This document shows positions 3,368-63,755 of a stretch of DNA of 64,000 bases, piece by piece. Position 1 is the first letter of the stretch, and each line of letters opens with the position of its first letter. Made by a program: the position numbers and the translations under genes. The notes beneath the pieces are model-generated. The model did not search any database. It had not been told where the DNA came from and was given only the letters and a program-made list of their open reading frames with translations. The stretch is from Candidatus Marinacidobacterium sp. (GTDB taxonomy: Bacteria; Acidobacteriota; Vicinamibacteria; Marinacidobacterales; Marinacidobacteraceae): NCBI GenBank assembly GCA_965220965.1, contig CBDCRI010000001.1, forward strand, positions 299,303 through 363,302, in the 5' to 3' direction.

Positions 3368-3943
3368 ATGCGACTTCGCGATGCCGTTCGCGTCCTGGTC
3401 CTCGGCAAGGGGCGCCAAAGGCAGATATTGACCTCCAGCGACCTAGCCTGCCTCTTCCCTGAGGACTCTCCAGCGGCTCTCGCAAGGGGCGTTCGGTCGC
3501 TGGTTGACGTGGGGTTGCTGTCGCGGGTGACGCACGGCGTTTACGTGAACTGCGCCGCTGCGCCGATGGGGTTGGAGGCCCCCGGCCGCCTTGTGGCGCA
3601 CATCCGCCCCCACGACGTCAGCTACCTGTCCTACGAGTCCGCCTTGAGTTGGCATGGGGCGATCAATCCCATCCCGCACGTGGAGACGTTCGCCACCACG
3701 GGCCGTAGCGGTCGATTCAAAACCCTGGTCGCGCACTTGGAGCTGACGCACACCAGGCGCACGCCAAAGGAGATATTCGCCCGGACGCTCTTCAGGAAGG
3801 ACTTGCGCTGCCGGGTTGCGTCGCCCGACCTGGCCCTTGAGGACCAGCGCCGCGTCCGTCCCTACATGATCGGATGCCACGTCGAGGAGGTCTATCTGAG
3901 CGAAGCGCGCGCCGACTGGCGGGAGATGGGAGGCCCTCATTGA
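3368..3943 (+). CDS. abiEi: Type IV TA antitoxin, AbiEi-like (wHTH plus C-terminal domain)
   Basis: GLLSRVTHGVYVN, YLSYESALSWHGAI and ASPDLALED motifs; its stop overlaps the next ATG (TGATG). Confidence 0.8.
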   Translation: MRLRDAVRVLVLGKGRQRQILTSSDLACLFPEDSPAALARGVRSLVDVGLLSRVTHGVYVNCAAAPMGLEAPGRLVAHIRPHDVSYLSYESALSWHGAINPIPHVETFATTGRSGRFKTLVAHLELTHTRRTPKEIFARTLFRKDLRCRVASPDLALEDQRRVRPYMIGCHVEEVYLSEARADWREMGGPH

Positions 3944-4902
3944 TGAACAGCTTCATCCACGACCAAGCGGCGGCGATTGTCCAGAACAAAAAGGACCTCG
4001 TTACGCACCTTCGGTCCGTGCGAAAGGAGATCGTTCAGCTGCATGTCCTGCGCGCCCTCAACAGCAGCGGGATTCTCGATGAGATCACCTTCATGGGCGG
4101 CACCTGCCTGCGGCTTTGCCACGGCGGCATCAGGTTCAGTGAGGACTTGGGCTTTCGCGGCGGCGGCTTTGACGGCCTCGCGAACGGCTTGGGGGCCACG
4201 CTTCAAGACGCCCTTCTGAAGCGCGGCATCAATGCCGATGTCCGCCCTGCTGGGGCGCCCGGCAGGGCGAAGGGAGGCGTGGAGCGCTGGTGGGTGCGAG
4301 TCGTCGTCAGGAAGGATGCCCCCAAGGACCAGCCCTCTGTCGAGCGAATCAAAATCGAGATTAACGCCCGAACGCGTCCGGAGGAGCGCGAACTCGGCCA
4401 CTTGGCCGACCGTTTCGGCGAGCTGTCGGGAGACCTGTCGGAAGCCCCCCTGATCCATTGCATGCCCATGCTGGACATTTGCGCTGACAAGCTCGCGGCC
4501 TTTCCGTTGAGCGTCGTCCAGCGCCCAGAGAATCCGCGCTACAGGGATGTGTTTGACTTGGCTTGGGCGTTGCCCCGGCTTGACGATGGAGCCGTGCCGG
4601 ACCGTGCGGCGGAGGTGGCCAGCCAACGAGGACTGGCGCCGGACGTGCGCGACGCCATCTCAAAAACGCTGCCAAAGCTGCGCGCGATTGTGGAGTCCGA
4701 AGAATACCGACGCAAGATTTCCCCCTTTTTGACTGACAGCGTGGCTGAAAGGACAGTGCGCGACGCGGAGTACAGGCGCAATTCGATCCAAGCATTGAGG
4801 CGGCAGCTGGATCTGTTGGACCGAGCGCTCGCGCTCCTTGGCCGTGGCCAGCGCGGCAGGCCGACCCAAGGCGGCGTTCGCCGCCGGCCCCCTTCCCCCT
4901 GA
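3943..4902 (+). CDS. abiEii: AbiEii/AbiGii-family nucleotidyltransferase toxin
   Basis: FMGGTCLRLCHGGIRFSEDL, IKIEI, ADKLAA and RYRDVFDL motifs; coupled to the AbiEi-like gene. Confidence 0.85.
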   Translation: MNSFIHDQAAAIVQNKKDLVTHLRSVRKEIVQLHVLRALNSSGILDEITFMGGTCLRLCHGGIRFSEDLGFRGGGFDGLANGLGATLQDALLKRGINADVRPAGAPGRAKGGVERWWVRVVVRKDAPKDQPSVERIKIEINARTRPEERELGHLADRFGELSGDLSEAPLIHCMPMLDICADKLAAFPLSVVQRPENPRYRDVFDLAWALPRLDDGAVPDRAAEVASQRGLAPDVRDAISKTLPKLRAIVESEEYRRKISPFLTDSVAERTVRDAEYRRNSIQALRRQLDLLDRALALLGRGQRGRPTQGGVRRRPPSP

Positions 4903-5303
4903 CCGTCGGCGCATCGCCTAGACGCACGCGCAGGCTTGTGGCCGAACTGTCCAACGGACTGACCGCCCCCCCCTCCCGCATCCCAAGCGCATTGGCCATG
5001 CGAATTCGAGATGGCCTTGAGTTGGACAGGCCTGAGTCAAAGGGAGTGTGCGGGTTGTTGAAGACCGCTCGGGACAGCGCTATCATGCCGTCATCCGGAC
5101 GCGGCCTCATTGAAGCCAAGGCAAAGCCATCTGATCCGCACCTTCCGCGTTCGGCAGCCAGCTCCGCCGCTGGATGCGGCCAGCCACCTTGCTATGGCGG
5201 CGCTGGCGCCCTTCCCTTCCTTGTTTCGCGCGGATGCCCTCTGGCCCCAAACGCGGCCCCGGCTGAAGCCGAGCCGGGAGCGCCCCCAAGTCGGCCTCGC
5301 GCG

Positions 5304-7747: not shown

Positions 7748-8326
7748 ATGAACACCGCCCCACCGCCCATCAGCCTGCTGCGCCTGGTCGAGACGGCCAT
7801 CGGCCACGCCCGCGACCTCGAGGCGGGCGGCAGGCACGTCCCGTCGTACGCCAGCTGGCACGAGCCGCATCGGGACGGCTGCCGCATCAGCCTGGCGGGC
7901 GCGTACGCGGCGGAGGCGCTGTGCGTGCGCCCCGACGAGCCGGGCGGCCCTGAGGACTTCGCGCCGCCGCTGCGACAGCAGGTCCAGGCGATCGGCGCGG
8001 CCGACAGGGGCCACGTGGGAATCGCCTACGGTCGGCTCGGGGAGCTGGCCTGCGGTCCGGACCGCAGGCGCTTGGCGCGGTGCGCGGAGGATTGGCTGGA
8101 TGAACTGGAGTCGCCCGCCGTCCGGGGCCGCATCGACGGCTTGAGGTACCACAGCTGGGACCAGTTCCTGCGCCACCTGGACCAGCTGGAGAGGGCTCTC
8201 CTGCCGGCGCTAGGCCGGATCGAGGCGGTGGCCCCGATGCCGGCCTACGCCCTGGACGCGCCGCGGATGACGGCGGACGCAGGCCGGCCCGGGGCGGCTG
8301 CCAAGGCTGGGCCGACCTCCCCGTGA
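7748..8326 (+). CDS. Hypothetical protein
   Basis: GGAGG RBS, upstream TTGCTTGAAT box (7698), globular-looking composition, ends KAGPTSP. Confidence 0.6.
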   Translation: MNTAPPPISLLRLVETAIGHARDLEAGGRHVPSYASWHEPHRDGCRISLAGAYAAEALCVRPDEPGGPEDFAPPLRQQVQAIGAADRGHVGIAYGRLGELACGPDRRRLARCAEDWLDELESPAVRGRIDGLRYHSWDQFLRHLDQLERALLPALGRIEAVAPMPAYALDAPRMTADAGRPGAAAKAGPTSP

Positions 8327-8525: not shown

Positions 8526-8930
8526 TCACGGCCCCGGCGCGGGGGGCCTCGGCCCGGCCAACGGACTGGCGGACAGGCCGGGGCTCCCGATGAACCTGCG
8601 CAGGCCCTCCGAGTGGAACGCCCTGATCGCCTCCACGGTGGGCTGGAACCCGCCTAAGCGCAGGGTTTCCCGGATGCGCTTCCAATGCCCGTCCTTGCGG
8701 ATGACGTCGAGGAACTCGGCGCCAGCCCACGTCAGGCGCGGCATCCAAACCTCGGCGCTCGTGTATTTCCGCGGCATCGCCTCCCCGTGGATCGAGGTGA
8801 TGAAGCCGGCGTCAAGCAGCAGCAAAAGCTGGGCCGACTCCGGCGAGTTGCTCTTCACTTCGAGGGGGCGGCCCGTCCCCGCCTCGACATCCAGAAGCAG
8901 CTTCCTGATCGCGTCCATGTCCCGCTTCAT
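8526..8930 (-). CDS. DUF2513 domain protein
   Basis: MKRDMDAIRKLLL...LLLDAGFI...RLTWAGAEFLDVIR signature. Confidence 0.85.
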   Translation of the reverse strand: MKRDMDAIRKLLLDVEAGTGRPLEVKSNSPESAQLLLLLDAGFITSIHGEAMPRKYTSAEVWMPRLTWAGAEFLDVIRKDGHWKRIRETLRLGGFQPTVEAIRAFHSEGLRRFIGSPGLSASPLAGPRPPAPGP

Positions 8931-9039
8931 GCGTTTCCCTCCCTTTCGGCCGGCATCGCCGACGTTGCGCAACGCGTCCATTGTAGGGTCCGCAATGGGC
9001 GGCGGCTCTTAAAGGCCGCCCACCGCGCCTGGGCGGACG

Positions 9040-9552
9040 CTAGGGCGACGGCGAGCACTGCTTGGGCGCGGCGGCCCGCTTGACGCGCTCCGCGTGCACC
9101 CCCTCAATGGCGGCTTGCGTGACCGGAACCTCCTTCGCGGCGAGCTGGCGCTTGATTATCCGCCACTGGCGGGGGTCGCGAATGATGTCGAGGAGCTCCG
9201 CGCCCGCCCACGTGAGGCGGACGCCATCCCAGACTTCGGTTATGGTGCTGTCCGCCTGCAAGGGGCCAATCCTCGGCTCGCCGGCCCGCAGCCGGATGAG
9301 GCCGGCGTCCCGCAGCTGCCAAAGGACGGCGGATCCGTCGGAGCCCCCTTCCGTCGAGACTGCGCCTGGCCCCTTCCCCCCTGCCGCCTCCACCTGCAGC
9401 AGCGCCACGCGCGCCTTGTCCATGGACCGCCTGCCGGGCGGCCCGAACATGCCCGTCGACCACCACCACTCGGACCATTCCGCCGGCTCGCGCCCGGCGG
9501 CCTTCCGCATGGCCTTCCACTCCAAGTACTCGGGATCACGTTCGACTTCCAT
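9040..9552 (-). CDS. DUF2513 domain protein, tandem paralogue
   Basis: RRSMDKARVALLQVE...LRDAGLI...RLTWAGAELLDIIRD. Confidence 0.75.
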   Translation of the reverse strand: MEVERDPEYLEWKAMRKAAGREPAEWSEWWWSTGMFGPPGRRSMDKARVALLQVEAAGGKGPGAVSTEGGSDGSAVLWQLRDAGLIRLRAGEPRIGPLQADSTITEVWDGVRLTWAGAELLDIIRDPRQWRIIKRQLAAKEVPVTQAAIEGVHAERVKRAAAPKQCSPSP

Positions 9553-15437: not shown

Positions 15438-16061
15438 CTAGGGGGCCGGCCCGGGAGTCCCGGGCTCGGCGGGCGACGGCGGGTTGGCCTCCTGCCAGGC
15501 GGCCTTGCGCTCGTGCAGCCAAGTTTGGGTGTGGGTGAAGGTCGGCCCCACGGACGTGCAGAAGGCGGCGCCGCCATTGAACCCGTCGGCCTGCGGCCTC
15601 GAGCAGTAGTCCGCCCAGGCGAACCCCACGGGGGGGAGCCCGAAGGCCTCCACCAGCCCCGAGGCGCAGTGGCCGGCGAGCTCAACGTCGCCGTACTCCT
15701 CGGCGTAGATGCTCACGCCCCCGTCCCATGTCTCGACCAGGAAGTCGTCGCTGAGCTCATCCAAGTCCTCCGTGTCCGCATCCTTCAGGCAGTTGGGGCG
15801 CTCGATGCATAGGCGCGCGAAGAGCTTGGCGGCCAGCTGCCGCGCAACCGCACGGGCCTCGGCGTCGAACCGCGGCCCGGGCGGCTCCGCCTCCGGAAAC
15901 ATGTCATCGAAGCCGAACGGGCGCCCGTGCTCAAGGGCCTGCAGCCCCTCGCGCCACCGGGCCGGGCCGTTCACGACCGCTTCAAGCGCCCACTTGGCGG
16001 CCTCGGCGCGCCCGCCCAAGTCCTCCACTCGGAACGAGAACTGGCGGTAGTTGTTGGCCAT
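15438..16061 (-). CDS. Hypothetical protein
   Basis: AGGAG RBS, TATAAT upstream, acidic globular sequence, ends PGPAP. Confidence 0.7.
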   Translation of the reverse strand: MANNYRQFSFRVEDLGGRAEAAKWALEAVVNGPARWREGLQALEHGRPFGFDDMFPEAEPPGPRFDAEARAVARQLAAKLFARLCIERPNCLKDADTEDLDELSDDFLVETWDGGVSIYAEEYGDVELAGHCASGLVEAFGLPPVGFAWADYCSRPQADGFNGGAAFCTSVGPTFTHTQTWLHERKAAWQEANPPSPAEPGTPGPAP

Positions 16062-16251
16062 GGACCTCTCCTGGTTGACTTGGCGGTCGCCGCCCGCGCC
16101 GCGGCCCGTGCCGGGCGAATGGCGCGCCCGGATTCATTATAGGAGGGCGGCCGGCCTTGGGCCGTTACCGTCCGCGGAAACGCCGCCATTGCCTGAGAGG
16201 GCTTGCCCAGAGGGATGGGGCGGCTCTGTGTCTGCCTGCTTTTCAGGTGGT

Positions 16252-17100: not shown

Positions 17101-17126
17101 TACAGATCAAATCTAGGTCAACACCT

Positions 17127-20924: not shown

Positions 20925-20943
20925 CCCGAGAGTTTCCAACCAC

Positions 20944-49301: not shown

Positions 49302-50648
49302 ATGCGCCTGTCCGTCCTCCTACACGATGAGCTTGCCGTCGAGCTGCAGGCCGATCCGCGGCAGCGGGCCGCCATCCTGACGCGGGGGGCCGCGATGCGG
49401 TGGCTCTCCGCCGCCTGGACGGGCGATGAGGGACTCAACCCCATGGTCAATTGGCTCGAGGCGCTCCTGCCGGAAAGCGGCAAGCTTGAGCGATGGCTGG
49501 GGCAGACGCGGGGGAGGCTGCTCGCAGGCGGCGTCGAGGACCGGCCCCACATTCCGGAAACGACGCTTTGGATGCATGCGGACGCGGAGTTTGCGGGCGC
49601 CGTGTCCCTCGTTCGGGACCAAGGCTCCCCCCGGAAGGCCCTGCCCATGGACTCCTCCGCCTATCGGAGGCTCGATGAGAAGGACGTTGGGCGGCTGCTT
49701 CTCGACGAGAACCAATTGGCCGGACGCGCGAAGGGCTCCCCCCGGGGCATTGAAGGGCGGGCGCGATCCTCGCTGTCCGGGATGCGTCCGAAGATCACCC
49801 TGACGGCCGTTGACGGCGATCCGGACCGGGGCTGGGCGCAAGGGGAGCCTGGGCAGCTGAACACTTGGATCGTCAAGCATGAGCACAGCCCGAACCTCCC
49901 CGGGGAGGCCGGCGTGGAGGCGGTTTGCCAAAGCGCGCTGGACCTTGCCGGGGTGCCGGCGGCCCGCACGCTGTCCCGGGTGATTGACGGCATGCAGTGC
50001 GTCCTGAGCGAGCGCAGCGACCGGGCCGTCAGGGACGGGGCGGTCGTGCCGGTCCACCAGGAGGACTATCGGCAGGCGGCGGGCAAGGGGATCGTGAAGT
50101 TTCGCGAGGCCGTCCAGCCGCGCAGCGAGTGGCCCTTTGCCTACCGGCTGCTGGACGGCGAGGCCGAGCGTGAGGCGCTGACCCGCTTCCTGGCGGGGTC
50201 GTGGCTGTTGGCGCACTGCGACCTGCACAGGGGCAACTTGGGCTTCACCATCACCCAACGGGGGGCGGGGCCGAAAAGGGCGTCCGTGGCGCCGGCGTAC
50301 GACGTGTCGAGCGCCGTCGGCACGAAGCTGAGCGCAAGGCTTGAGTTCCCCATCGCCGCGCAGGGCGACCCCGCGAAGATCAGCGTCCGCCAATGGGCCG
50401 CGCACGCCAGGGAGTGCGGAATCGAGGAGGATGCCACGCTGGAGGCGGTTTCGAGCGTCGCGCGGGCGATGCCTGGCGCCCTCGCCCAAGCCATGGCCGA
50501 CGCACGGGCGGGCCATGAGAACATCAGGCAGGATGCGGTCGATGCGCGGTGCGCGGCGGTGATGGGGCACGTCGTCGCCCGCGCCGACCGCTTCGAGCAG
50601 GACTTGGCACGGAGGATGAGGAGGGCCTTCGACGCGCCGGGGCCTTAG
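49302..50648 (+). CDS. hipA: HipA-like Ser/Thr kinase
   Basis: LEALLPE, SLSGMRPK, WIVKHE, HQED, DLHRGN and APAYDV; no hipB seen. Confidence 0.85.
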   Translation: MRLSVLLHDELAVELQADPRQRAAILTRGAAMRWLSAAWTGDEGLNPMVNWLEALLPESGKLERWLGQTRGRLLAGGVEDRPHIPETTLWMHADAEFAGAVSLVRDQGSPRKALPMDSSAYRRLDEKDVGRLLLDENQLAGRAKGSPRGIEGRARSSLSGMRPKITLTAVDGDPDRGWAQGEPGQLNTWIVKHEHSPNLPGEAGVEAVCQSALDLAGVPAARTLSRVIDGMQCVLSERSDRAVRDGAVVPVHQEDYRQAAGKGIVKFREAVQPRSEWPFAYRLLDGEAEREALTRFLAGSWLLAHCDLHRGNLGFTITQRGAGPKRASVAPAYDVSSAVGTKLSARLEFPIAAQGDPAKISVRQWAAHARECGIEEDATLEAVSSVARAMPGALAQAMADARAGHENIRQDAVDARCAAVMGHVVARADRFEQDLARRMRRAFDAPGP

Positions 50649-52906: not shown

Positions 52907-54013
52907 ATGGCGCAGCGCACCAACCGAATGACCCCCGAGGAGGCCCGCGAGGCCATCGTTGCGGGCGCCTGCCCGGAGGGGGCGTCGGTCGACGGGCGGC
53001 TGCTGCTGGAGGACGCGGACTCGCTGACCGAGCTGCCGCGCGGCCTGCGGGTCGACGGCGAGCTTTGGATCCGCGGGTGCAACCGGCTGCGGCTGCTGCC
53101 CGCCGGGCTTTCCGCGCAGGCGCTGCGGGTGGAGGCCTGCTCCCTCATGGAGGGGTTCGCCCCGGACTTCGGCGGCGCCTTCGGCGCGCCGCGTTGGGTC
53201 CACTTCGAGAGCTGCCCATCGCTGCACAGCCTTCCCGACGCCCTGAGCGCGGGGGGCGACCTCTCGCTGGTCGGCTGCCATAGGCTCACGGCGCTGCCCC
53301 GAAGCCTGTCGGCGCGCTCGGTGCTGGTCGGCGACTGCGCCGCCTTGGAGGGGTTCCACGCCGACGCCAGCGCCTTCGAGGCCGCGGGGACCGTGAGGTT
53401 CCTGAACTGCCCCTCGCTGCACCGCTTCCCGGAAAGCCTGGCCGTCGGCCGCGACCTGCTGCTGATCGACTGCCCGCGCGCATGGGCGAGCCCCGCGGGG
53501 GAGCCCGGCGGCGCGCCGCGGCGGCTGTCCGTGGGCGGCACCGCCACCCTCGAGCGGTGCGCGGCGCTGTCGCGGCTCCCGGAGGACGCCGCCATCGGCG
53601 TGCGCCTCTACGTGGACCGGTGCCACCGCCTGGAGCGGCTGGGCGGGCTCGACGGGCCGCGCCCGCTACGCGTCGGCTTCGGCTGCAGCGTCGAGCGCTG
53701 CCAGGGGCTGCGGCGCATCGACCACATCGCGTTCAGGCGCTTTGGCTCGCTGGAGGTCGTCCACTGCCTGCGGGTCGAGGCCATCGGGGACGGCGTGAGG
53801 CCCCAGCGCAAGCTGCGCCTGGTGGGCTGCGGCGCGCTGGAGCGGCTGCCCGCCGCGCTCTCCCTCGACGGCGCCCTGGTCGCCCGCGACTGCCCCTCCC
53901 TGGCGGGGCCGCAGGGCGTTTCGGCCCCGATCGTGGCGGCTGAGGGCACGACGCCGCGCTGGGAGGGCGCGGAGGCGGCGGCCGCCAAGGCGGACGCCGG
54001 CCCCTCCCCCTGA
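52907..54013 (+). CDS. Cys-rich LRR protein, paralogue 10
   Basis: MAQRTNRMTPEEAREAIVAGACP; box TTGCTTAAAT at 52850. Confidence 0.85.
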   Translation: MAQRTNRMTPEEAREAIVAGACPEGASVDGRLLLEDADSLTELPRGLRVDGELWIRGCNRLRLLPAGLSAQALRVEACSLMEGFAPDFGGAFGAPRWVHFESCPSLHSLPDALSAGGDLSLVGCHRLTALPRSLSARSVLVGDCAALEGFHADASAFEAAGTVRFLNCPSLHRFPESLAVGRDLLLIDCPRAWASPAGEPGGAPRRLSVGGTATLERCAALSRLPEDAAIGVRLYVDRCHRLERLGGLDGPRPLRVGFGCSVERCQGLRRIDHIAFRRFGSLEVVHCLRVEAIGDGVRPQRKLRLVGCGALERLPAALSLDGALVARDCPSLAGPQGVSAPIVAAEGTTPRWEGAEAAAAKADAGPSP

Positions 54014-54068: not shown

Positions 54069-54779
54069 ATGGCGGGAGGGAGCCGCAGCATGTCCCCGGC
54101 ACAGGCCCGGGCCGCGATCCTCGCGGGGGACTGCCCGGACGGGGCGGTCGTCGAAGGGCCTCTCTGGCTGCTGCCGGGGGACGGCGGGGGCGTGCTGCCC
54201 GAGGGGCTGACCGTTGAGGGGGAGATGGTCCTCGATGGCTGGGACGGGATCAGGCACCTGCCCCCCGGGCTGTCCGCGCGCTCGCTCTGGATCCAGCGGT
54301 GCGCGGCGCTGGAGGGCTTCCATCCGGCCTTCGGGGGCGCCTTCCACGTGCCCGGGGACCTGCTCCTGATCGACTGCCCCGCCCTGCACGCCTTTCCCGC
54401 CGAGCTGAGCGTCGGCGGCGGCCTGCGCCTCGAACGCTGCCCGAGGGCCTGGTCGGGCGGGGCGGGCGCCGCCGGGGCGCCCCCCGCAAGGCTCAGGGTG
54501 GCGGGCGAGCTACGGCTGAAGAGCTGCGGGCGGCTGTCCGCGCTGCCCCCGGAGTTGGACGTCGGCGGCAGCCTGCGGATCACCGATTGCCCCGCGCTCA
54601 AGGACATCCGCCCGCGGCGCTGCGTGGGCCAGGTCCAAATCGAGAGCCGCGAGCCGGTGCGGGGCGTGGGAACGCTCTCCTTCAAGCCCTTGGGGGCGCT
54701 GCTGCACCCGCCCGCCGGCAGCGCCCTGCGGCGGAAGGCCCGACCCAATGGAGGGAAGCCCCATGGCCCAGGCCATTGA
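54069..54779 (+). CDS. LRR paralogue 11, C-terminally degenerate
   Basis: Family N-cap and ~7 repeats, then the pattern is lost; box TTGCTCTAAT at 54030. Confidence 0.7.
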   Translation: MAGGSRSMSPAQARAAILAGDCPDGAVVEGPLWLLPGDGGGVLPEGLTVEGEMVLDGWDGIRHLPPGLSARSLWIQRCAALEGFHPAFGGAFHVPGDLLLIDCPALHAFPAELSVGGGLRLERCPRAWSGGAGAAGAPPARLRVAGELRLKSCGRLSALPPELDVGGSLRITDCPALKDIRPRRCVGQVQIESREPVRGVGTLSFKPLGALLHPPAGSALRRKARPNGGKPHGPGH

Positions 54780-55668
54780 ACTGACCGAGGCCGAGGCCCG
54801 CGAGGCCATACTGAAGGGGACGTGCCCGGAAGGCGCGGCGGTGGACGGGGGCCTCGCCTTCGAGCGGAAGGGCGCGTTGGTCGAGCTGCCCGAGGCGCTC
54901 AGGGTCCGCGGGACGCTGCGCATCAGCGGCTGCGACCGGATCAGGCGCCTGCCGGCCGGGCTGGACGCCGACGCCGTGCTGGTCGAGGAGTGCCCCGTTC
55001 TTGAGGGGACCGACCCCTCCAGGGGGGCGACCCTGACCGTGAGGCGCGACCTCTCCTTCCTCAACTGCCCGTCCCTGGCGCGCTTCCCGGACCGGCTCAA
55101 GGTCGGGGGCAGCCTGTCCATGGCGAACTGCCCGCAGGCCTGGTCGCAGCCGGCCGGACGGCCAGGAGGCCCGCCCGAGGCCCTGCGCACGGGCGGCGAC
55201 GTGACCCTGCACGCCTGCGCCGCCCTGCGGCACCTCCCGGACGCCCTTCGCGTCGGCGGCTCCCTCATCATCCTGGAGTGCCAGTCGCTGGAGGCCCTGC
55301 AAGACGGATACCCGGGCGGGCGCTGGCTCTTCGGCCATGCGGTCGTCATCAGGGGCTGCCACAACCTGCGCCGCGTCGGCGGGCTCAGGCACGAGAGCGC
55401 CGGCGAGCTTCAGGTCGAGCACTGCGCCGCCTTGGAGGAGATCGGCTCGGACGTCGGCCCGCTGCGCGTCCTCGGCCTGCGGAACTGCCCGTCGCTGCAG
55501 CGCCTGCCGGACAATCTGCCGGACGACGGCTGGCTCTCGGCCCGCGATTGCCCGTCGCTCCGGCCGCCGACGGGGTTGGCGGTTCGGGCCGCCTTCAAGC
55601 CGTCGGGCACCACGCCGCGCTGGACGGCGGGCGGCCCCGCGAAGCCGGCACGCCAGCCGGCCCCGTGA
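54763..55668 (+). CDS. Cys-rich LRR protein, paralogue 12
   Basis: MAQAIELTEAEAREAILKGTCP. Confidence 0.85.
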   Translation: MAQAIELTEAEAREAILKGTCPEGAAVDGGLAFERKGALVELPEALRVRGTLRISGCDRIRRLPAGLDADAVLVEECPVLEGTDPSRGATLTVRRDLSFLNCPSLARFPDRLKVGGSLSMANCPQAWSQPAGRPGGPPEALRTGGDVTLHACAALRHLPDALRVGGSLIILECQSLEALQDGYPGGRWLFGHAVVIRGCHNLRRVGGLRHESAGELQVEHCAALEEIGSDVGPLRVLGLRNCPSLQRLPDNLPDDGWLSARDCPSLRPPTGLAVRAAFKPSGTTPRWTAGGPAKPARQPAP

Positions 55669-55722: not shown

Positions 55723-56637
55723 ATGAAGCGCATGGAGACGGCGATCGAACTGACGCGGGGGGTGCGCGAGGCCATCCTGAGGGGGGCGTGCCCGCAGGGC
55801 GCGGCCGTGGCCGGCGACCTCGTGCTCGAGGGCGAGGCCGCATTGACGGAGCTGCCGAGGGCGCTCACGGTCCATGGGACGCTGCGCATCGCCGGCTGCC
55901 ACCGGCTCAGGCGCCTGCCTGTCGGCCTGGCGGCGGACAGCATCCACATCGAGAACTGCGCCGTCCTTGAGGGGGTGGCCCCAGCCACCGGGGCGGAACT
56001 GCGCGTGCGGCGGGACCTGACGTTCAGCCGATGCCCCTCCCTTGCGCGCTTCCCGGACCAGATCACGGTGGGCGGCAGCCTGTCCATCGCGGACTGCCCG
56101 CAGGCGTGGGCGCAGCCGAACGGGCAACCCGGAGGGCCGCCCTACGGCCTCAAGGCGGGCGGGGACGTGTCCCTGCAACGCTGCGCGGCCCTGCGGCACC
56201 TGCCGACGCGCATGCTCGTCGGCGGCTCCCTCAACATCGCCGAGTGCCACTCGCTGAGCAGCGTTGGCGAGGCATGGCTCGGCGCCGCGCCCATGCCCGA
56301 GGTCGGCGCCGTCTGGATCACGAGCTGCCACGGCCTGCGTCGCGTCGGCGGGCTGGCGTTTGCGCAGGACGGGGAGCTTGACGTCGAGGACTGCGTCGCC
56401 CTGGAGGCCGTGGCGGACGACGTGGGGCCCCTGCACACCCTCGCCCTCAAGGGCTGCCCGTCGCTCAAGCGCCTGCCCCGCGGGCTGCCGCCCGACGGCT
56501 GGCTCTCGGCCCGCGACTGCCCGCTCCTCGAGCCGCCGCCGGAGCCTGCGGTCCGGGCCGCCTTGGAGACGTCGGGCACCACGCCGCGCTGGGCGCCGGC
56601 CAGCGCCGGGCGCCGGCCCCGGCCACCCTCCCCCTGA
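55723..56637 (+). CDS. Cys-rich LRR protein, paralogue 13 (closest to 12)
   Basis: Shares RRDLxFxxCPSLARFPD, GGPP and DGWLSARDCP with paralogue 12. Confidence 0.85.
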   Translation: MKRMETAIELTRGVREAILRGACPQGAAVAGDLVLEGEAALTELPRALTVHGTLRIAGCHRLRRLPVGLAADSIHIENCAVLEGVAPATGAELRVRRDLTFSRCPSLARFPDQITVGGSLSIADCPQAWAQPNGQPGGPPYGLKAGGDVSLQRCAALRHLPTRMLVGGSLNIAECHSLSSVGEAWLGAAPMPEVGAVWITSCHGLRRVGGLAFAQDGELDVEDCVALEAVADDVGPLHTLALKGCPSLKRLPRGLPPDGWLSARDCPLLEPPPEPAVRAALETSGTTPRWAPASAGRRPRPPSP

Positions 56638-57946: not shown

Positions 57947-58474
57947 ATGAGCGACGAGACCACCTACCACTGGATCGACAGCCCGGACGCCGTTGGGCGG
58001 CAGGAGGAGATCTTCGGGGCCGGCGCGGCCCTGCACGGGGTTTGGCTGGACAGGGAGAACGCGGAGGCCGAGGCGGAGGACTGCGCCGCCGAGCTGGAGC
58101 AGATGGACGCGGACGGCAGCTACGCCGGGGTGACCTATCATGTTGAGTCAGGCCCCTGCCTGCCGGACTGGGCGCGGTTCGACGTTGCGGAGTACCTGAT
58201 CGACGCGCACGGGATCGAACACCCAACCCGCTGGCACGGCCCGGTGCGCACGATGGACGAGGCCAAGGCGCAGTTCTTCGAGGCGGTCCAGTCCGGCGCC
58301 TACCACATGGCCGACGACCCAGGCCCCGGGGAGCGGCGCGAGGTGACCGCGCGGCTGGCGCTGCTCGACCAGGACGATGAGGTGATTGAGGAGGCGACGG
58401 TTCGCACCGCGTACGAGCCGCAAGCCCATGGCGGGCGCCCGGGCGGAAGCCGGCCCCCCGCGATTGCCCCGTAA
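57947..58474 (+). CDS. Acidic hypothetical protein
   Basis: 175 aa, high GC3, ends RPPAIAP. Confidence 0.7.
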   Translation: MSDETTYHWIDSPDAVGRQEEIFGAGAALHGVWLDRENAEAEAEDCAAELEQMDADGSYAGVTYHVESGPCLPDWARFDVAEYLIDAHGIEHPTRWHGPVRTMDEAKAQFFEAVQSGAYHMADDPGPGERREVTARLALLDQDDEVIEEATVRTAYEPQAHGGRPGGSRPPAIAP

Positions 58475-59928: not shown

Positions 59929-61101
59929 ATGTCCAAGAAAAACGCCCGAATGACGGTCGAGGATGCGCGCAAGGCCATCCTGGAGGGCGGCTGCCCGGAG
60001 TTTGCCGAAGTCGACGGCGACCTGTGGCTCCGGGCCGCGCCCTCGCTCGACCGGCTGCCCGTGGGCCTCAAGGTCCGGGGGAGCTTGTGGATCACCGGGT
60101 GCGACCGGCTCGAGCGGCTGCCGCATGGATTGGAGGCGGAGTCCCTCTTCGTCAAGGACTGCGCCGTCCTGGAGGGCTTCGCGGAGCGGCGGCGCTTCCG
60201 CGTGCCGGGGGGCCTGACATTCGAGGACTGCCCGGGCCTGCGCACCTTCCCGAAGCGCCTGGAGGTCGGCGGAGACCTGGGGATTGAGGGCTGCCCGCAG
60301 GCGTGGTCCGCCACCGGGCGCGCGCCGAAAAGCCTCGACGTCAGCGGCAGGGCCCACATTGGCCGGTGCGCCGGCCTGGCGCGGCTGCCGGCGGACACGG
60401 CGGTCTGGAGTGCTCTTTCTGTGTTCGGGTGCGACCGCCTCCTGCGGCTGCCGGAGCGGCTGTCGGTCGGGTCGCTGCACATCGTGGACTGCGCCGCCTT
60501 GCGGGGGTTCCACCCCGGCTACCAGGCCCGCGGCTTCCAGGTCCGCGGGGCGCTCTCCTTCGACGGCTGCCCCGCCCTGTCGGACTTTCCCGCCTGGCTG
60601 TCGGCGGGCTGGACGTTCACCATGCAGCGCTGCGAGCGGGCGTTTGGGCCGCCGGACCCGGCGCGCGGCAGCCACCCTCCGAAGGGCCTTTATGTGGGCC
60701 GATGCGCCACGATCAGGCTGTGCCCGTCGATGTCCCGGCTGCCGCAACGGGTGGAGGTCGGCACGACGCTGCGCATCGCGGAGTGCGATGGCCTGACTGG
60801 CGTTGGGGGCGGCGGGAAGGCCGAAGCCCCGGAGGTGGGCCATGGCTGCACGCTGCTTGGGTGCGCAGGCCTGCAACGCGTGGACGGCATCGCGTTCAGG
60901 AGCCCAGCCTGGCTGGAGGTCAAGCGCTGCCCTGAGCTGCAAGCCATCGGGGACGGGGTCGGCCCCCTCGACCGGCTGGATGTGGAGGGCTGCCCCGCCC
61001 TTGTTCGGACGCCGGCGGCGGGCGGGGGCGCAAGGGCATTGGCATCGAAGGACCAAGGGTCCGCGCCCGATGCCCGGCGGGCCGGCGCGCCCTCGCCCTA
61101 G
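59929..61101 (+). CDS. Cys-rich LRR protein, paralogue 16 (long form)
   Basis: MSKKNARMTVEDARKAILEGGCP. Confidence 0.85.
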   Translation: MSKKNARMTVEDARKAILEGGCPEFAEVDGDLWLRAAPSLDRLPVGLKVRGSLWITGCDRLERLPHGLEAESLFVKDCAVLEGFAERRRFRVPGGLTFEDCPGLRTFPKRLEVGGDLGIEGCPQAWSATGRAPKSLDVSGRAHIGRCAGLARLPADTAVWSALSVFGCDRLLRLPERLSVGSLHIVDCAALRGFHPGYQARGFQVRGALSFDGCPALSDFPAWLSAGWTFTMQRCERAFGPPDPARGSHPPKGLYVGRCATIRLCPSMSRLPQRVEVGTTLRIAECDGLTGVGGGGKAEAPEVGHGCTLLGCAGLQRVDGIAFRSPAWLEVKRCPELQAIGDGVGPLDRLDVEGCPALVRTPAAGGGARALASKDQGSAPDARRAGAPSP

Positions 61102-61172: not shown

Positions 61173-62477
61173 ATGGCGAAGGGAAGCACCGAAGTGACGG
61201 CCGGCGAGGCGCGCAATGCCATCCACGAGGGGCGCTGCCCCGAGGGCGCCGAAGTCTGGGGCGACTTGGACCTTTTGGACGCGTCCTGGCTTGTCCGGCT
61301 GCCCAAGGGCCTCAAGGTCAAGGGGAGTTTGAGGATCACCGGGTGCCACCGGCTCGAGTGGCTGCCGGAGGGCCTGGAGGCGGACTGCCTCCAGGTCTCC
61401 AACTGCGCGTCGCTGCGGGGCTTCGCGGATTGGCGGCGCTTCCGCACGCCGGGCGACCTGACGTTCCTCGGCTGCCCCCTGCTGCACGCCTTCCCGGAGC
61501 GCCTCGAGGTCGGGGGCAACCTGCTGATGCAAGCCTGCCACCGGGCGTGGTCGCGTTGGACGGGCATGCCGGCCTCCCTCGACGTGGCGGGGTTGGCGAC
61601 CTTCGAAGACTGCGCGGGACTGGAGCTGCTGCCGGCGGACACGCGCGTGGGCCGCCGGCTCAAGGCGTCGGGCTGCGACCACCTCCAGCGGCTGCCGGAG
61701 CGGCTGTCGGCAGGGGAGCTGGCCGTCGTGGACTGCGCCGCGTTCGCGGGCTTCCACATGGACATGGACGGCCCGGACCAGGCGTTCCATGTGGACGGCG
61801 ATCTCGACTTCGCCGACTGCTCCGGCCTGAGGGTCTTTCCGATGGAGATATCGGTCGGCGGGGACTTCCGGATGCGGAACTGCCCGCGGGCCTGGCACCG
61901 GGAGCGCGGCACCCACCCGCCGGCCACCCTGCGGGTGCGCGGCTCGGCATTGATCGACGCCTGCTCCGGCCTGACCGCGCTGCCCGAACGGATCGAGGTC
62001 GGCGAGACGCTGAGCCTCTCCGCGTGCCACGGCCTGGAGGCCTTGCGCCTCCCGCCAGAGCCCGGCCGCGGCAGCCTGGAGGTGGGGCGTTGCGTCGACA
62101 TTGACAGCTGCCACGGGCTGCGGCGCATCGACGACATCGGGTTCAGGGACGTCGGCAGGCTGGAGGTCCTCCATTGCGACCTGCTCGAGGCCATCGGCTT
62201 CCCCGCTGGCACCTTGTCCAAGGCGCGGGTCATGGACTGCCCGGCGCTGTCGGAGCTGACCGGCCGGATCTCCCTGGAGGGCGACCTGACCCTGCACGAC
62301 TGCCCGCTGCTCGTCCAGGCGGTCGCGGTCGAAGGGGGCGGGCGCGTGGTCAGGTCGGGCTCCACCCCCGCCCAGCCCGCGGCGCCGGCCCCCCGGCCGC
62401 GGCGGCGCGGCGCCCTCCCCCTGACCCCGGCCGGCGCGCCCGAAGGCGCGCGCCCAGTCCGCCCGCGCTTGCTTTAA
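61173..62477 (+). CDS. Cys-rich LRR protein, paralogue 17 (tail frameshifted)
   Basis: Close to paralogue 18; reads past the homologous ccctccccctga stop at 62422-62424. Confidence 0.85.
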   Translation: MAKGSTEVTAGEARNAIHEGRCPEGAEVWGDLDLLDASWLVRLPKGLKVKGSLRITGCHRLEWLPEGLEADCLQVSNCASLRGFADWRRFRTPGDLTFLGCPLLHAFPERLEVGGNLLMQACHRAWSRWTGMPASLDVAGLATFEDCAGLELLPADTRVGRRLKASGCDHLQRLPERLSAGELAVVDCAAFAGFHMDMDGPDQAFHVDGDLDFADCSGLRVFPMEISVGGDFRMRNCPRAWHRERGTHPPATLRVRGSALIDACSGLTALPERIEVGETLSLSACHGLEALRLPPEPGRGSLEVGRCVDIDSCHGLRRIDDIGFRDVGRLEVLHCDLLEAIGFPAGTLSKARVMDCPALSELTGRISLEGDLTLHDCPLLVQAVAVEGGGRVVRSGSTPAQPAAPAPRPRRRGALPLTPAGAPEGARPVRPRLL

Positions 62478-62507
62478 TCGGGCAACCGAACCCGCACGGA
62501 GGCCGCC

Positions 62508-63755
62508 ATGGCCCGCAAGACCCCCCGAATGACGGCCGGCGAGGCGCGCAATGCCATCCAGGAGGGGCGTTGCCCCGAGGGCGCCGAAGTCTGGGGCGAC
62601 CTGGTCCTTTTTCACGCGTCCTGGCTTGTCCGGCTGCCCAAGGGCCTCAAGGTCAAGGGGAGCTTGTCGATCCACGGGAGCGACCGGCTCGAGCGCCTGC
62701 CGGAGGGCCTGGAGGCGGACTCCCTCGTCGTCTCCAACTGCGCTTCGCTGGCGGGCTTCGCGGAGTCCTGCCGGAGCTTCCGCACGCCGGGCGACCTGAC
62801 GCTCCTCGGCTGCCCCCTGCTGCACGCCTTCCCGGAGCGCCTCGAGGTCGGGGGCGACCTCCGGCTGGAACGCTGCCCGTTGGCGTGGTCGGCTTGGTCG
62901 GGCGTGCCGGCCTCGCTCGACGTAACGGGGGCGGCGACCTTCGAAGACTGCGCGGGACTGGAGCTGCTGCCGGCGGACACGCGCGTGGGCCACTGGTTCA
63001 AGGCAGTGCACTGCGACCGCCTCCTGCGGCTGCCGGAGCGGCTGTCGGCAGGGGCGTTGGCCGTCGAGGACTGCGCCGCGTTCGCGGGCTTCGACATGGA
63101 CTGCCGGGACCGGGCGTTCCATGTCCAGGGCGATGTCGTCTTCAACGACTGCCCCGGCCTGAAGCTCTTTCCGGGGGAGCTGTCGGTTGGCGGGGATTTC
63201 CGGATGCGGCGCTGCGCGCGGGCCTGGCACCGGGAGCGAGGCAGCCACCCGCCGGAAACCCTGCGGGTGCGCGGCTCGGCATCCATCGACGCCTGCGCCG
63301 GCCTGACCGCGCTGCCTGAATGGATCGAGGTCGGCGGGACGCTGAGGCTCTCCGAGTGCCACGGCTTGGAGGCCTTGGGCCTCCCGCCAGCGCCCGGGCG
63401 CGGCAGCCTGGAGGTGGGGCAATGCGTTAACATTGGCAGCTGCCACGGGCTGCGGCGCATCGACGACATCACGTTCAGGGGCGTCGGCTTCCTGTCGGTC
63501 GACCATTGCAACCGGCTCGAGGCCATCAGCGCCCCCGCAGGCACCCTGTACCGGGCCTTCGTTACGCACTGCCTGAGGCTTTCGGAGCTGACCGGCCAGC
63601 TCGCCCTGGAGGACGACCTGACCCTGGACGACTGCCCTCTGCTCCTCCATGAGGTCGCGGTCGAAGGGTGCGGGCGCGTGGTCAGGTCGGGATCCACCCC
63701 CGCGCAGCCCGCGGCACCGGCCCCCAGCCGCGGCGCCAAGGCGCCCTCCCCCTGA
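62508..63755 (+). CDS. Cys-rich LRR protein, paralogue 18
   Basis: Recent duplicate of 17; box TTGCTTTAAT at 62469. Confidence 0.85.
   Translation: MARKTPRMTAGEARNAIQEGRCPEGAEVWGDLVLFHASWLVRLPKGLKVKGSLSIHGSDRLERLPEGLEADSLVVSNCASLAGFAESCRSFRTPGDLTLLGCPLLHAFPERLEVGGDLRLERCPLAWSAWSGVPASLDVTGAATFEDCAGLELLPADTRVGHWFKAVHCDRLLRLPERLSAGALAVEDCAAFAGFDMDCRDRAFHVQGDVVFNDCPGLKLFPGELSVGGDFRMRRCARAWHRERGSHPPETLRVRGSASIDACAGLTALPEWIEVGGTLRLSECHGLEALGLPPAPGRGSLEVGQCVNIGSCHGLRRIDDITFRGVGFLSVDHCNRLEAISAPAGTLYRAFVTHCLRLSELTGQLALEDDLTLDDCPLLLHEVAVEGCGRVVRSGSTPAQPAAPAPSRGAKAPSP

Follow-up and report, generated by a model that had tools for sequence, protein, structure and literature searches.

Tailed genes of the window and their replicon

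The DNA analysed here (the window) makes up the last 64 kb of C2, a plasmid-like contig 363 kb long in a genome of two contigs; the other, C1, is the chromosome, and C2 is a plasmid-like megaplasmid with a type IVB secretion system (T4BSS). Among the 51 genes called in the window, 19 encode proteins that end in P-x-P, namely seven proteins outside the LRR-like family and 12 of the 17 LRR-like proteins (Table 1). Every tail listed in the original prediction was found in place, and Pfam confirms the AbiEii, DUF2513, Fic and HipA assignments.

Table 1. Tailed, near-variant and untailed genes of the window, and coupling genes of C2
Feature	Position	Strand	C-terminal end	Support
AbiEii toxin-type nucleotidyltransferase	3943..4902	+	RRRPPSP-stop	Pfam
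DUF2513 protein	8526..8981	-	RPPAPGP-stop	Pfam
Weak DUF2513 paralogue	9040..9552	-	KQCSPSP-stop (TAG)	
207-aa protein	15438..16061	-	GTPGPAP-stop	
171-aa protein	37862..38377	+	RTRAPSPAP-stop	
DUF4172-Fic (SoFic-like), ~40-aa disordered extension	38693..39925	+	RSRSASPGP-stop	Pfam
LRR-like paralogue	40148..41041	+	APAGPAP-stop	
LRR-like paralogue	41133..42029	+	KGGPSPSP-stop	
LRR-like paralogue	43208..44074	+	PRAPSPAP-stop	
LRR-like paralogue, modelled (beta-solenoid, last ~25 aa disordered)	45284..46192	+	RRRGPSPSP-stop	
LRR-like paralogue	46248..47147	+	RRAPSPSP-stop	
Short LRR-like paralogue	48394..49035	+	RKGPPLP-stop	
HipA-type kinase	49302..50648	+	RRAFDAPGP-stop (TAG)	Pfam
LRR-like paralogue	52907..54013	+	KADAGPSP-stop	
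LRR-like paralogue	54748..55668	+	KPARQPAP-stop	
LRR-like paralogue	55723..56637	+	RRPRPPSP-stop	
LRR-like paralogue, 420 aa	58602..59864	+	RSAGPPAP-stop	
LRR-like paralogue	59950..61101	+	RRAGAPSP-stop (TAG)	
LRR-like paralogue, 408 aa	62529..63755	+	RGAKAPSP-stop	
Near variant, uncharacterised protein	7748..8326	+	KAGPTSP-stop	
Near variant, 85-aa protein, motif plus one residue	37537..37794	+	KAAPGPA-stop	
Near variant, LRR-like paralogue	44223..45134	+	RRRAPSPGA-stop	
Near variant, LRR-like paralogue	42102..43025	+	RPTRQAP-stop	
Near variant, uncharacterised protein	57947..58474	+	RPPAIAP-stop (TAA)	
LRR-like paralogue without tail, reads beyond sister copies' stop	61173..62477	+	PVRPRLL	
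DotL/TrbC-like coupling ATPase	C2:120930-123329			Pfam/NCBIfam
DotM	C2:119535-120878			Pfam/NCBIfam

The LRR-like family has 24 members and supplies 18 of the 66 tails of C2. Its label, as originally proposed, holds at best at the level of fold class: the modelled protein (mean pLDDT 92) is a confident, repetitive beta-solenoid with the repeat consensus L..LP.GL.V.G.L.I..C..L, but the family has no Pfam LRR match at E<=1e-5 or at E<=0.01, and a Foldseek search with the model returned no match at E<=0.001, nearly all of the top weak matches being LRR proteins. The last ~25 residues of the model fall to pLDDT 54-68. When 19 paralogues are aligned the two terminal prolines are nearly invariant, with a linker variable in length and sequence, and two paralogues have drifted past the stop to read into sequence homologous to the 3'UTR of a sister copy.

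Frequency, origin and anatomy of the tail

Genes were called on both contigs with our own codon-usage caller (309 on C2 and 2217 on C1), and where these proteins are also annotated publicly, their ends are identical. P-x-P immediately precedes the stop in 66/309 C2 genes vs 35/2217 C1 genes (OR 16.9, p=3.6e-38), P[SAG]P in 60/309 vs 13/2217 (OR 40.9) and PSP in 27/309 vs 1/2217. Open reading frames in the other frames end in P-x-P in 76/2890 cases on C2 (2.6%) and 317/21118 on C1 (1.5%), and the C1 gene rate of 1.6% sits at this off-frame level. With paralogue families collapsed after tail trimming, 39 of 233 C2 families retain at least one tailed member, and singletons are tailed in 22/203 cases (10.8%; OR 7.6 vs C1, p=1.8e-10). 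The original prediction carried the caveat that high GC favours such residues, a concern answered by the chromosomal and off-frame comparisons and by the nearly equal GC of tailed and untailed C2 genes (0.741 vs 0.737). The pattern is confirmed as real and far beyond chance, with GC content excluded as its cause. About five of the 66 C2 ends would be expected by chance.

As the original prediction held, the tail comes after the conserved domains. The Fic homologues examined at ~50% identity, 17 in all, each end 20-40 residues earlier and lack the extension, and none of six chromosomal Fic and HipA paralogues is tailed. The comparison with database homologues that had been suggested thus gives a divided result, with no tail on these distant proteins and chromosomal paralogues but tails on the nearest relatives. 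The closest Fic clusters in other assemblies end in PRPSP or GGTCPSP (7/13 members), a shorter Fic variant ends in KHSPSP, the nearest LRR-like relatives end in SASPAP and SPSPG, and PSP closes two of 78 foreign HipA homologues, compared with 1/2217 for C1. Two other assemblies carry the tail on both Fic and HipA genes; in these MAGs, which may be incomplete and gave no DotM_C or DotA match, it is restricted to this pair (2/142 and 2/102 of the genes sampled), and one of the genomes has 63% GC and a P-x-P background of 2/142. Judged by these comparisons, the tail is a gain relative to homologues.

The consensus is roughly [R/K][R/K]-x-[P/G/A]-[A/S/G]-P-[S/A/G]-P-COOH. P[SAG]P is fixed at the very end of 60/309 C2 proteins, compared with 1-8 at most other offsets, and terminal Pro is enriched even where no Pro stands at -3 (50/243 on C2 vs 179/2182 on C1). 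Basic residues occur at -7 in 25/66 bearers and at -8 in 23/66, D and E are rare across the last 14 positions, and the mean net charge of the last 15 residues is +1.48 in bearers, +0.65 in other C2 proteins and +0.15 on C1. Together with the low model confidence at the C-terminus noted above, this bears out the proposal of a common, basic, unstructured addition gained by unrelated resident genes.

At the DNA level, information is confined to the first two positions of both Pro codons and the first position of the codon at -2; third positions hold 0.02-0.16 bit, the base directly after the stop 0.06 bit, and none of the 40 positions examined 3' of the stop exceeds 0.11 bit. A DNA element shared over gene ends (attC, MITE/REP or terminator) was rejected, since no nucleotides are conserved beyond what the amino acids need. 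All three stop codons follow tails, and the last Pro favours CCC (42/66 vs 37% for Pro across C2). Because shared DNA is absent and the Ser of the tail is encoded by both TCN (TCC, TCG, TCT) and AGY (AGC, AGT) codons, the tail is coded at the amino-acid level; by this signature, selection acts on it as a short linear motif of the protein.

The C2 bearers span ~39 families and include many unrelated, soluble, plasmid-specific accessory proteins, among them the LRR-like proteins, a helicase, a methyltransferase, many uncharacterised proteins and the toxin-type Fic (two), HipA and AbiEii (three). The tail had been described as absent from Cas and methyltransferase proteins, which is true of the window but not of C2 at large, where Cas11e/Cse2 and a type I N6-methyltransferase are tailed. 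A hydrophobic 19-mer occurs in 4/66 bearers vs 49/243 untailed C2 proteins (p=0.005), and one bearer, a DotC-like lipoprotein, has an N-terminal hydrophobic segment. Defence models matched none of 44 of the 51 bearers scanned, and homologues on four other T4BSS megaplasmids were found for 4/66 bearers vs 44/243 non-bearers (p=0.02). The 20-60 kb and 80-120 kb bins of C2, which are T4BSS and backbone regions, are free of tails. The tail marks accessory cargo, not backbone.

The type IVB system and the endings of related megaplasmids

The original prediction noted that no T4SS gene lies in the window; at the scale of the replicon this caveat falls away, as C2 carries a full type IVB system of the Dot/Icm-like kind, and no other T4SS was detected in the genome. 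Pfam and NCBIfam searches identified DotI, DotH, DotG/TraO, DotA/TraY, DotD, DotB-like ATPases and DotM; a DotC-like TraI lipoprotein and a DotL/TrbC-type coupling protein are also encoded, so that every core component sought (DotL, DotM, DotA, DotG, DotH, DotI, DotD, DotC and a DotB-type ATPase) is present. The closest coupling proteins, at 40-50% identity, reside on MPF_I megaplasmids. The system is not of the VirB/VirD4 type that had been invoked, neither VirB4 nor VirD4 having been found. Of the coupling protein (virD4/traD) and tailed relaxase that were to be looked for on the contig, the former is represented by the DotL/TrbC-type protein and the latter gave no match in the genome to PF03432, the one relaxase family searched, so that conjugation, which needs a relaxase, is a putative function of the system.

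Anchored C-terminal endings are also over-used by related T4BSS megaplasmids, but the endings differ. On pMPPla107, [LIM]GL ends 58/414 proteins vs 4/3229 off-frame, in families distinct by profile, and on pBASL58 it ends 47/407; DLGL is the anchored ending of both. P[SAG]P is weaker elsewhere (Bosea pANAM02, 9/371 vs 15/4286; pMPPla107, 6/414 vs 7/3229), P-x-P on pBASL58 is not significant (5/407), and none of the 504 proteins of the Vibrio T4BSS plasmid ends in it. Terminal AA is found on 24/504 Vibrio proteins (1.9 expected) and 24/371 Bosea proteins (5.4 expected), and on 13/309 C2 proteins vs 7.9 expected. P-x-P is not general to this plasmid class, and the T4BSS coupling proteins are the only machinery common to all the plasmids with anchored endings.

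Candidate readings of the tail

Signals of VirB/VirD4 and conjugative T4SS resemble the tail in being C-terminal, unstructured and net positive on otherwise ordinary enzymes, those of Agrobacterium following an Arg-rich consensus, but they lack a fixed terminal tripeptide and their apparatus differs from the C2 system; none of the T4SS signals known to us is a tripeptide fixed strictly at the terminus. In the peroxisomal targeting signal PTS1 (-SKL) and the degron ssrA (-LAA) a free C-terminus is recognised, a flexible linker precedes it and unrelated proteins share the motif. These differ from the C2 tail in residues and in cellular system, and the likeness is an analogy, no homologous reader having been identified here. 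Among substrates of secretion systems, TA toxins (FicT, PezT) were drawn repeatedly into the cargo of conjugative T4SS when they acquired a C-terminal signal, and the majority of T4SS signals are very short and carry positive charge (excerpts of PMC5675462). VbhT (FicT-BID) and PezT-BID, like C2, place on toxin-type enzymes of a T4SS plasmid a C-terminal addition missing from their closest relatives (excerpts of PMC5675462), but that addition is a ~100-aa folded, relaxase-derived BID on few proteins, whereas on C2 it is a disordered linker with a tripeptide on ~39 families. Dot/Icm effectors share with the tailed proteins a DotL/DotM complex, a large soluble repertoire and a signal within the last ~20-30 residues, and the signals characterised there are acidic, Glu-rich stretches bound by DotM Arg patches (R196/R197, R217, R314/R315) (excerpts of PMC5802825). 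An E-block signal was rejected for C2, where tails are net positive, poor in D and E and strictly terminal, whereas the E-block is acidic and not fixed to the last three residues. Stalling at TnaC and in SsrA tagging likewise involves Pro directly before the stop (Hayes 2002, as cited in excerpts of PMC7246954), but these cases are single genes or leader peptides, against a fifth of the C2 replicon, and leave linker, charge and the -2 residue unexplained.

The tail most likely marks proteins for recognition by plasmid machinery. Since it is specific to C2 and missing from the chromosomal Fic and HipA paralogues, its reader is probably encoded on C2. The identity of that reader and the downstream fate of the bearers are what we infer here: at a probability of roughly 0.4, the tail would be a recruitment tag for the coupling complex of the plasmid's T4BSS. 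The disordered, positively charged extension would present P-x-P at the free C-terminus, the coupling complex (DotL/TrbC ATPase and DotM) would read it as a cytoplasmic address tag, and the recruited proteins would then be exported into a recipient or host cell. Of the features of a generic positively charged T4SS signal, an unstructured position within the last ~20-50 residues, a net positive charge and a T4SS with a coupling protein on the replicon are found. The C-terminal extension of the C2 DotL is acidic (22 K+R vs 37 D+E), and the cytoplasmic part of DotM has 41 K+R and 44 D+E; in DotM the R314 equivalent is kept, R315 is Thr and the rest is too divergent to align. Several observations point the other way. 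The tailed Fic and HipA genes of the two MAGs described above count against a simple T4SS reading, the basic tail against reading as a characterised Dot/Icm signal, and against export stand Cas11e and the type I methyltransferase, which act in the producing cell, and the N-terminal segment of the DotC-like lipoprotein. The limited spread of P-x-P over the plasmid class and the missing PF03432 match weigh on the same side. In favour of the tag, the DotM authors suggest co-evolved interfaces for non-acidic tails (excerpts of PMC5802825).

Should P-x-P-COOH instead govern stability, as a degron or as a cap that shields the C-terminus from proteolysis, it would be read in the cytosol by a protease or an adaptor and would set the level of costly or toxic cargo, with no export. 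We consider this unlikely, even though the motif is anchored to a free C-terminus as in C-terminal degrons, many bearers are toxin-type, Fic and HipA are tailed in assemblies where a T4BSS was not detected, and the AA ends enriched on the Vibrio and Bosea megaplasmids resemble ssrA-type ClpXP signals or degrons, which favours a role in stability for such tags in general. The degrons of this kind known to us end in non-polar residues, not Pro, and the tail thus departs from the non-polar -AA of ssrA-like ClpXP signals; no cytosolic AAA+ protease is among the C2 Pfam matches, the sole PDZ protease (M48-PDZ, 9660-10742) has a lipobox-like LQGC at its start and probably resides in the periplasm, and an off-frame rate on C1 would be unexpected for a host-protease reader. 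C-terminal residues do affect protein level and degradation in bacteria (excerpts of PMC7246954). According to the same excerpts, termination in E. coli can stall at a C-terminal Pro, which can lead to SsrA tagging (Hayes 2002, cited in PMC7246954), and abundant proteins are depleted of Pro at -1. A termination effect, in which release is slowed by a P-site Pro at the stop and a second Pro two residues back, so that the nascent chain end is selected to keep accessory expression low or to couple it to release factor or tmRNA, would suit the strength of terminal Pro with or without Pro at -3, the CCC preference and a short release-factor-like gene on C2. It is nonetheless quite unlikely: stop usage is that of the rest of C2 (TGA 49/66 vs 219/309), the base after the stop is unconstrained, and neither the small -2 residue, the basic -7 and -8 positions and the long disordered extensions nor the restriction to soluble proteins and the DLGL and AA endings of sister plasmids would be explained. 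In the one species assayed, C-terminal Pro left expression unchanged (excerpts of PMC7246954).

Restriction to one replicon, anchoring at the terminus and a disordered linker would also fit a motif that docks to another hub encoded by the plasmid, neither T4BSS nor protease, such as a chaperone, a hub of partition or replication, or a reader of the SH3-like or TPR-like kind. The SSB C-terminal tail and the PTS1 tripeptide are analogues, and the bearers are mostly uncharacterised, as the defence scan illustrates; this reading is improbable to us, as no candidate reader was identified and the coupling proteins alone are common to the plasmids with anchored endings. That the tail has no function, and follows from high GC, from stops that drift where the 3' region is rich in Pro, Ala and Arg, from paralogy or from a common DNA element (repeat, att site or terminator), is very improbable and largely refuted by the controls. 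High GC does enrich P, A, G and R, and the LRR-like family contributes many of the tails and shows drifting stops, but the off-frame rate and that of the equally GC-rich C1 are low, singletons are still tailed, tailed and untailed genes do not differ in GC, third codon positions and the DNA after the stop carry no signal, and Fic and HipA are tailed again in a genome of 63% GC.

The recruitment reading may extend to the plasmid class. It is conceivable, although doubtful, that each T4BSS megaplasmid lineage has its own C-terminal 'postcode' on dozens of otherwise unrelated, soluble accessory proteins (P-[S/A/G]-P for C2, D-L-G-L for pMPPla107 and pBASL58, and perhaps -AA for the plasmids of Vibrio and Bosea), co-evolved with DotL/DotM. 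If this were true, recipient or host cells would receive toxin-type enzymes (Fic, HipA, AbiEii) together with LRR-like proteins, and the effector repertoire of such a plasmid would be readable directly from its sequence.

Frequency and anatomy of the tail

The source genome consists of two contigs, a chromosome (C1; 2.88 Mb, 71.3% GC) and the plasmid-like contig on which the window lies (C2; 363,302 bp, 73.4% GC; window at C2:299303-363302). Genes were called with our own codon-usage log-likelihood caller, based on stop-to-stop ORFs with iterative training and greedy overlap resolution, which returned 2217 genes on C1 (coding density 0.91) and 309 on C2 (0.81). Doubt over start sites is irrelevant to tail counts because the C-terminus is set by frame and stop codon alone, and window proteins found in public collections have identical C-terminal ends.

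The original prediction was that unrelated window proteins share a C-terminal tail ending in P-x-P directly before the stop. All of the tails it named, on seven non-LRR and twelve LRR-like proteins, were found (19 of 51 window genes), and the frequency comparison it proposed placed C2 far above both chromosomal genes and off-frame ORFs. P-x-P terminates 66/309 proteins on C2 versus 35/2217 on C1 (OR 16.9, p=3.6e-38); the corresponding values are 60/309 versus 13/2217 for P-[S/A/G]-P (OR 40.9) and 27/309 versus 1/2217 for PSP. Among off-frame ORFs with a minimum length of 60 codons and the same GC content, P-x-P ends 76 of 2890 on C2 and 317 of 21118 on C1, and these controls, with the chromosome, rule out a GC or compositional artefact. 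When C2 proteins were clustered by BLASTP after removal of their last 12 residues, 39 of 233 families contained a tailed member and 22 of 203 singletons were tailed (OR 7.6 versus C1, p=1.8e-10), excluding paralogy as the sole cause. Double counting of LRR-like genes through assembly overlap is also ruled out, since the two C2 ends are only 85-87% identical. Fourteen tailed proteins have independent Pfam domain matches (T4SS_TraI, three AbiEii, DEAD helicase, N6_Mtase, Cse2, two Fic, HD_4, DUF3085, AAA_16, DUF2513, and HipA) and are therefore products of genuine genes. GC and GC3 of the bearers equal those of the rest of C2 (GC 0.741 versus 0.737), so that a compositionally foreign subset is not supported. 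The statistical pattern of terminal P-x-P on C2 is robust.

P[SAG]P is exactly C-terminal in 60 C2 proteins, with counts of 7, 19, 4, 6, 3, 4, 1, 3, 4, 7, and 8 at offsets 1 to 11 from the end, the 19 at offset 2 representing overlapping PxPxP; on C1 the counts are flat (4-13 at all offsets). The middle residue of the motif (-2) is S in 27, A in 21, G in 12, R in 4, and D and L in 1 each; position -4 is A, S, or G in most bearers, and R/K occupies -7 in 25/66 and -8 in 23/66. Terminal Pro is also over-represented in the remaining C2 genes (50/243 versus 179/2182 on C1), which indicates a motif with a degenerate fringe (TSP, IAP, QAP). The predicted model of one LRR-like protein, built on 19 paralogues, has a mean pLDDT of 92.3, with values of only 54-68 in the ~25 C-terminal residues. 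Alignment of the paralogues places the domain end at G-[ST]-T-P-[RW], followed by a linker varying in length and sequence; the two terminal prolines belong to the small number of positions that hardly vary.

Information near the stop is limited to codon positions 1 and 2 of both Pro codons (1.18 bit each) and position 1 of the -2 codon (0.75 bit), with 0.02-0.16 bit at third codon positions and at most 0.11 bit at every position of the 40 nt downstream. Serine at -2 is encoded by TCC (16), TCG (5), TCT (1), AGC (3), and AGT (2), and the TCN and AGY boxes cannot be interconverted by a single synonymous change. This mixture and the confinement of information exclude a shared DNA element at gene ends, such as a repeat, att site, or terminator. 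The last Pro codon shows a mild preference for CCC (42/66 versus 37% for Pro across C2), and the stop codons of bearers (TGA 49, TAG 16, TAA 1) follow the usage of the rest of C2. The tail is thus selected at the protein, not the DNA, level.

Plasmid gene content and the bearers of the tail

C2 encodes RepA_C, ParA, ParM-like genes, two DnaB, Pol III alpha, SSB, ribonucleotide reductases, RtcB, two CRISPR-Cas loci, and several C5 and N6 methyltransferases, with N4 and MT-A70 enzymes also present. The prediction had found no type IV secretion gene in the window and proposed a search of the contig for a coupling protein and relaxase. That search was borne out in part: C2 encodes a Dot/Icm-like type IVB system (T4BSS), but VirB4, VirD4, and a PF03432 relaxase have no match anywhere in the genome, the last being missing although the T4BSS is complete.

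Coordinates of type IVB secretion genes and other features on the plasmid-like contig
Feature	Position	Remark
DotI/IcmL	C2:39397-40140	
DotH/IcmK	C2:40696-41928	
DotG/TraO	C2:41931-43337	
DotA/TraY	C2:82012-84819	
DotM	C2:119535-120878	
DotL/TrbC-type coupling protein	C2:120930-123329	
T2SSF/T2SSE, T4SS_TraI (DotC-like) protein, DotD	C2	part of type IVB system
C5-cytosine DNA methyltransferases	C2:102991-106153, 174627-175835, 181518-182630; window 47160-48209	five paralogues
RtcB ligase	C2:138111-139346	
Release-factor-like gene	C2:189085-189834 (L011:2989-3735)	outside window; short, ~236 aa
CRISPR-Cas locus	window 16000-28000	Csc2-like, helicase, Cas1, Cas2
LRR-like array	window 34706-63755 and C2:1-8034	24 paralogues, nearly all + strand
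M48 metallopeptidase-PDZ fusion	window 9660-10742 (-)	near-variant end ...TPPAPGR

The release-factor-like gene is nearest to RF1 and keeps the GGQ motif, with one reading frame broken by a single in-frame stop; two full-length release factors are encoded on the chromosome. Together with the RtcB ligase it recalls the PrfH-RtcB pairing. The window's CRISPR-Cas locus lies in a segment of 0.60-0.64 GC, against about 0.70-0.76 elsewhere; none of its genes is tailed, and it is probably an island of more recent acquisition.

Judged by sequence, the bearers are soluble: a hydrophobic 19-mer occurs in 4/66, versus 49/243 other C2 proteins (p=0.005) and 919/2217 on C1. The mean net charge of the last 15 residues is +1.48 in bearers, +0.65 in other C2 proteins, and +0.15 on C1. 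Bearers seldom abut the next gene (4/65 versus 76/243, p=1e-5) and so tend to be stand-alone or operon-terminal. A PADLOC scan of 51 bearers, omitting 15 redundant paralogues, matched defence models in seven (DpdF-like helicase, type I MTase, Cas11e, two SoFic, AbiEii, and PDC-M03A [HipA]) and gave no match for the other 44. No tails occur in the C2 bins at 20-60 kb and 80-120 kb, which hold T4BSS and replication genes, and homologues on four other megaplasmids of the class were found for 4/66 bearers versus 44/243 non-bearers (p=0.02), the four homologues of bearers being untailed. The tail thus marks accessory genes and not the plasmid backbone.

The largest carrier is a 24-member LRR-like family with 18 tailed members. 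The label "LRR" may hold at the level of fold class only, the predicted structure being a repetitive beta-solenoid with weak Foldseek matches (best E=0.037) nearly all to LRR proteins, but no Pfam LRR match was obtained. The family is part of an extensive superfamily of repeat proteins (9734 representatives at E<=0.001), of which many remote members (P0300, P0307, P0325, P0347, P0348, P0362, P0365, and P0370) have another conserved C-terminal module (...C.QAAAW.AGF......Y.P..ET) with no relation to P-x-P. The array runs across the contig-end junction, and the similarity of the two C2 ends over about 2.6 kb fits a circular replicon on which a tandem family is diverging.

Comparison with homologues shows that the tail is a gain that moves with particular genes. 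In the homologue check that the prediction proposed, 17 Fic homologues at about 50-55% identity stop 20-40 residues earlier and lack P-x-P; among the best 120 Fic matches it occurs only in the query, P0002, and one other (EPCP). The extension is present in the two nearest clusters, both from other assemblies. In the cluster of P0002 (68% identity) 7/13 members end in PSP, one with altered preceding residues (GGPRPSP to GGTCPSP). The cluster of P0003 (64%) has five members with the ending GRGP and two shorter variants with KHSPSP. Of 78 foreign HipA homologues, three end in P-x-P with unrelated linkers, two of them in PSP (p=0.003 against the C1 rate). The 136 foreign proteins among the best 150 LRR-like profile matches include two with P-x-P, and the two nearest true relatives end in …KSASPAP and …RRRSASPSPG. 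The source genome also encodes six Fic and HipA paralogues on its chromosome, and none of them is tailed. In G001, the unrelated assembly (63% GC) that is the source of P0002, a compact island (contig C172, L074:14532-19405) has the order AbiEi-like, AbiEii, Fic (PSP), HipB-like, and HipA (…TEPSP); PSP is confined there to Fic and HipA, and the tail therefore accompanies toxin-type genes outside the plasmid. A genome-wide quirk of a donor lineage is not supported, as P-x-P ends 2/142 sampled genes in G001 (Fic and HipA) and 2/102 in G002, the other assembly with a tailed Fic.

Endings on sister megaplasmids

The nearest coupling proteins (40-50% identity) are encoded on MPF-I megaplasmids, 0.7-1.2 Mb in size, from Pseudomonas (pMPPla107, pBASL58), Vibrio, Piscirickettsia, and Bosea. 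A search of 60 relatives of the source genome, at ranks from genus to class, gave no match to the coupling protein (E<=1e-10) or to the LRR-like family (E<=1e-6). Genes were called on the first 400 kb of four sister plasmids, and endings were compared with each plasmid's own off-frame ORFs or composition rather than with host chromosomes. The pattern extends, unexpectedly, to these plasmids with a different motif. On pMPPla107 (NZ_CP031226.1, L115-L134, 53% GC), 58/414 proteins end in [L/I/M]-G-L versus 4/3229 off-frame ORFs (OR 131), with the consensus R-D-x-x-hydrophobic-[G/A/S]-x-D-L-G-L-stop; synonymous codons vary freely, all three stops are used, and nothing is conserved downstream. An iterated profile from the largest pMPPla107 family takes in 27 of these 58 proteins and nothing else, the other 31 belonging to other families and size classes; none of 14 tested matched Pfam. 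pBASL58 (NZ_CP032678.1, L137-L156) has the same ending (47/407 versus 6/3630). Many megaplasmid proteins appear to share this C-terminal ending, which seems not to have been described; neither "C-terminal" nor "C-terminus" occurs in the main text of a published comparison of the pMPPla107 family (PMC6482414).

Bosea pANAM02 (9/371 versus 15/4286, OR 7.1) and pMPPla107 (6/414 versus 7/3229, OR 6.8) show a modest enrichment of P[SAG]P ends, but pBASL58 (1/407) and the Vibrio plasmid (38% GC; 0/504) do not. A strong excess of -AA ends was seen on the Vibrio plasmid (NZ_CP015514.1, L157-L176; 24/504, 1.9 expected from composition) and pANAM02 (NZ_AP022849.1, L095-L114; 24/371, 5.4 expected), and not on C2. 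These -AA ends resemble ssrA-type ClpXP degrons.

Possible readers of the tail

The tail would require a reader of a free, Pro-terminated, basic, and flexible C-terminus, one that would come with the plasmid and not be used by the chromosome. The M48-PDZ protease was set aside because its lipobox-like start (MLLQGC) marks it as probably a periplasmic lipoprotein. The obvious candidate would be the T4BSS coupling complex that the plasmid itself encodes, and we tentatively favor it at a probability of about 0.4. T4SS substrates have been described as soluble proteins whose recognition in the cytoplasm depends on a C-terminal signal, often a short one with positive charge (PMC5675462; PMC11288057), and toxin-antitoxin toxins, including Fic, as repeatedly recruited to conjugative T4SSs through a gained C-terminal signal (PMC5675462). 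The C-terminal extension of the C2 DotL is acidic (22 K+R versus 37 D+E). For other species, the DotM structure paper proposes co-evolution of DotM interfaces with tails that are not acidic (PMC5802825). Complex prediction for the DotM cytoplasmic domain, the DotL C-terminal region, and a 40-aa LRR-like tail, run without controls, gave no answer (score 0.00) and speaks neither for nor against this reading. The C2 DotM was alignable in part only for comparison of the Arg patch.

Several points count against recognition by the coupling complex. Known Dot/Icm signals are acidic, whereas the C2 tail is basic. To our knowledge a strictly anchored tripeptide has no precedent as a T4SS signal, and DotM and DotA had no match in the two metagenome-assembled, possibly incomplete genomes with tailed Fic and HipA. 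For a few bearers the site of action is the producing cell itself, and the seemingly degron-like -AA ends on sister plasmids likewise weigh against export; rival explanations must therefore be considered. Those -AA ends speak for a stability tag, which we nevertheless regard as unlikely. An effect of Pro-stop on translation termination, for which the reported ability of C-terminal Pro to stall release provides a basis (PMC7246954), is rather doubtful, as is docking to another plasmid-encoded hub, and a functionless by-product is very improbable. Simple reporter fusions would test the function of the tail directly.

No terminal P-x-P tag, and no replicon-wide C-terminal tags on T4BSS megaplasmids, were described in the literature searched. 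T4SS substrate signals are notoriously hard to define, and effector repertoires have therefore been found mostly by screening; C2 presents some 60 proteins that share one sharply defined terminal motif. Were the tail instead a stability or termination tag, a mobile element would, unusually, be setting its accessory proteome apart for distinct treatment. As a T4SS signal, the tail would be a new and unusually sharp form of a known signal type, extending the repeated recruitment of toxin-antitoxin toxins as secreted effectors and providing simple peptide tags for probing T4BSS recognition. With the coupling complex as reader, the effector code would be readable from sequence for a widespread and poorly understood class of megaplasmids.
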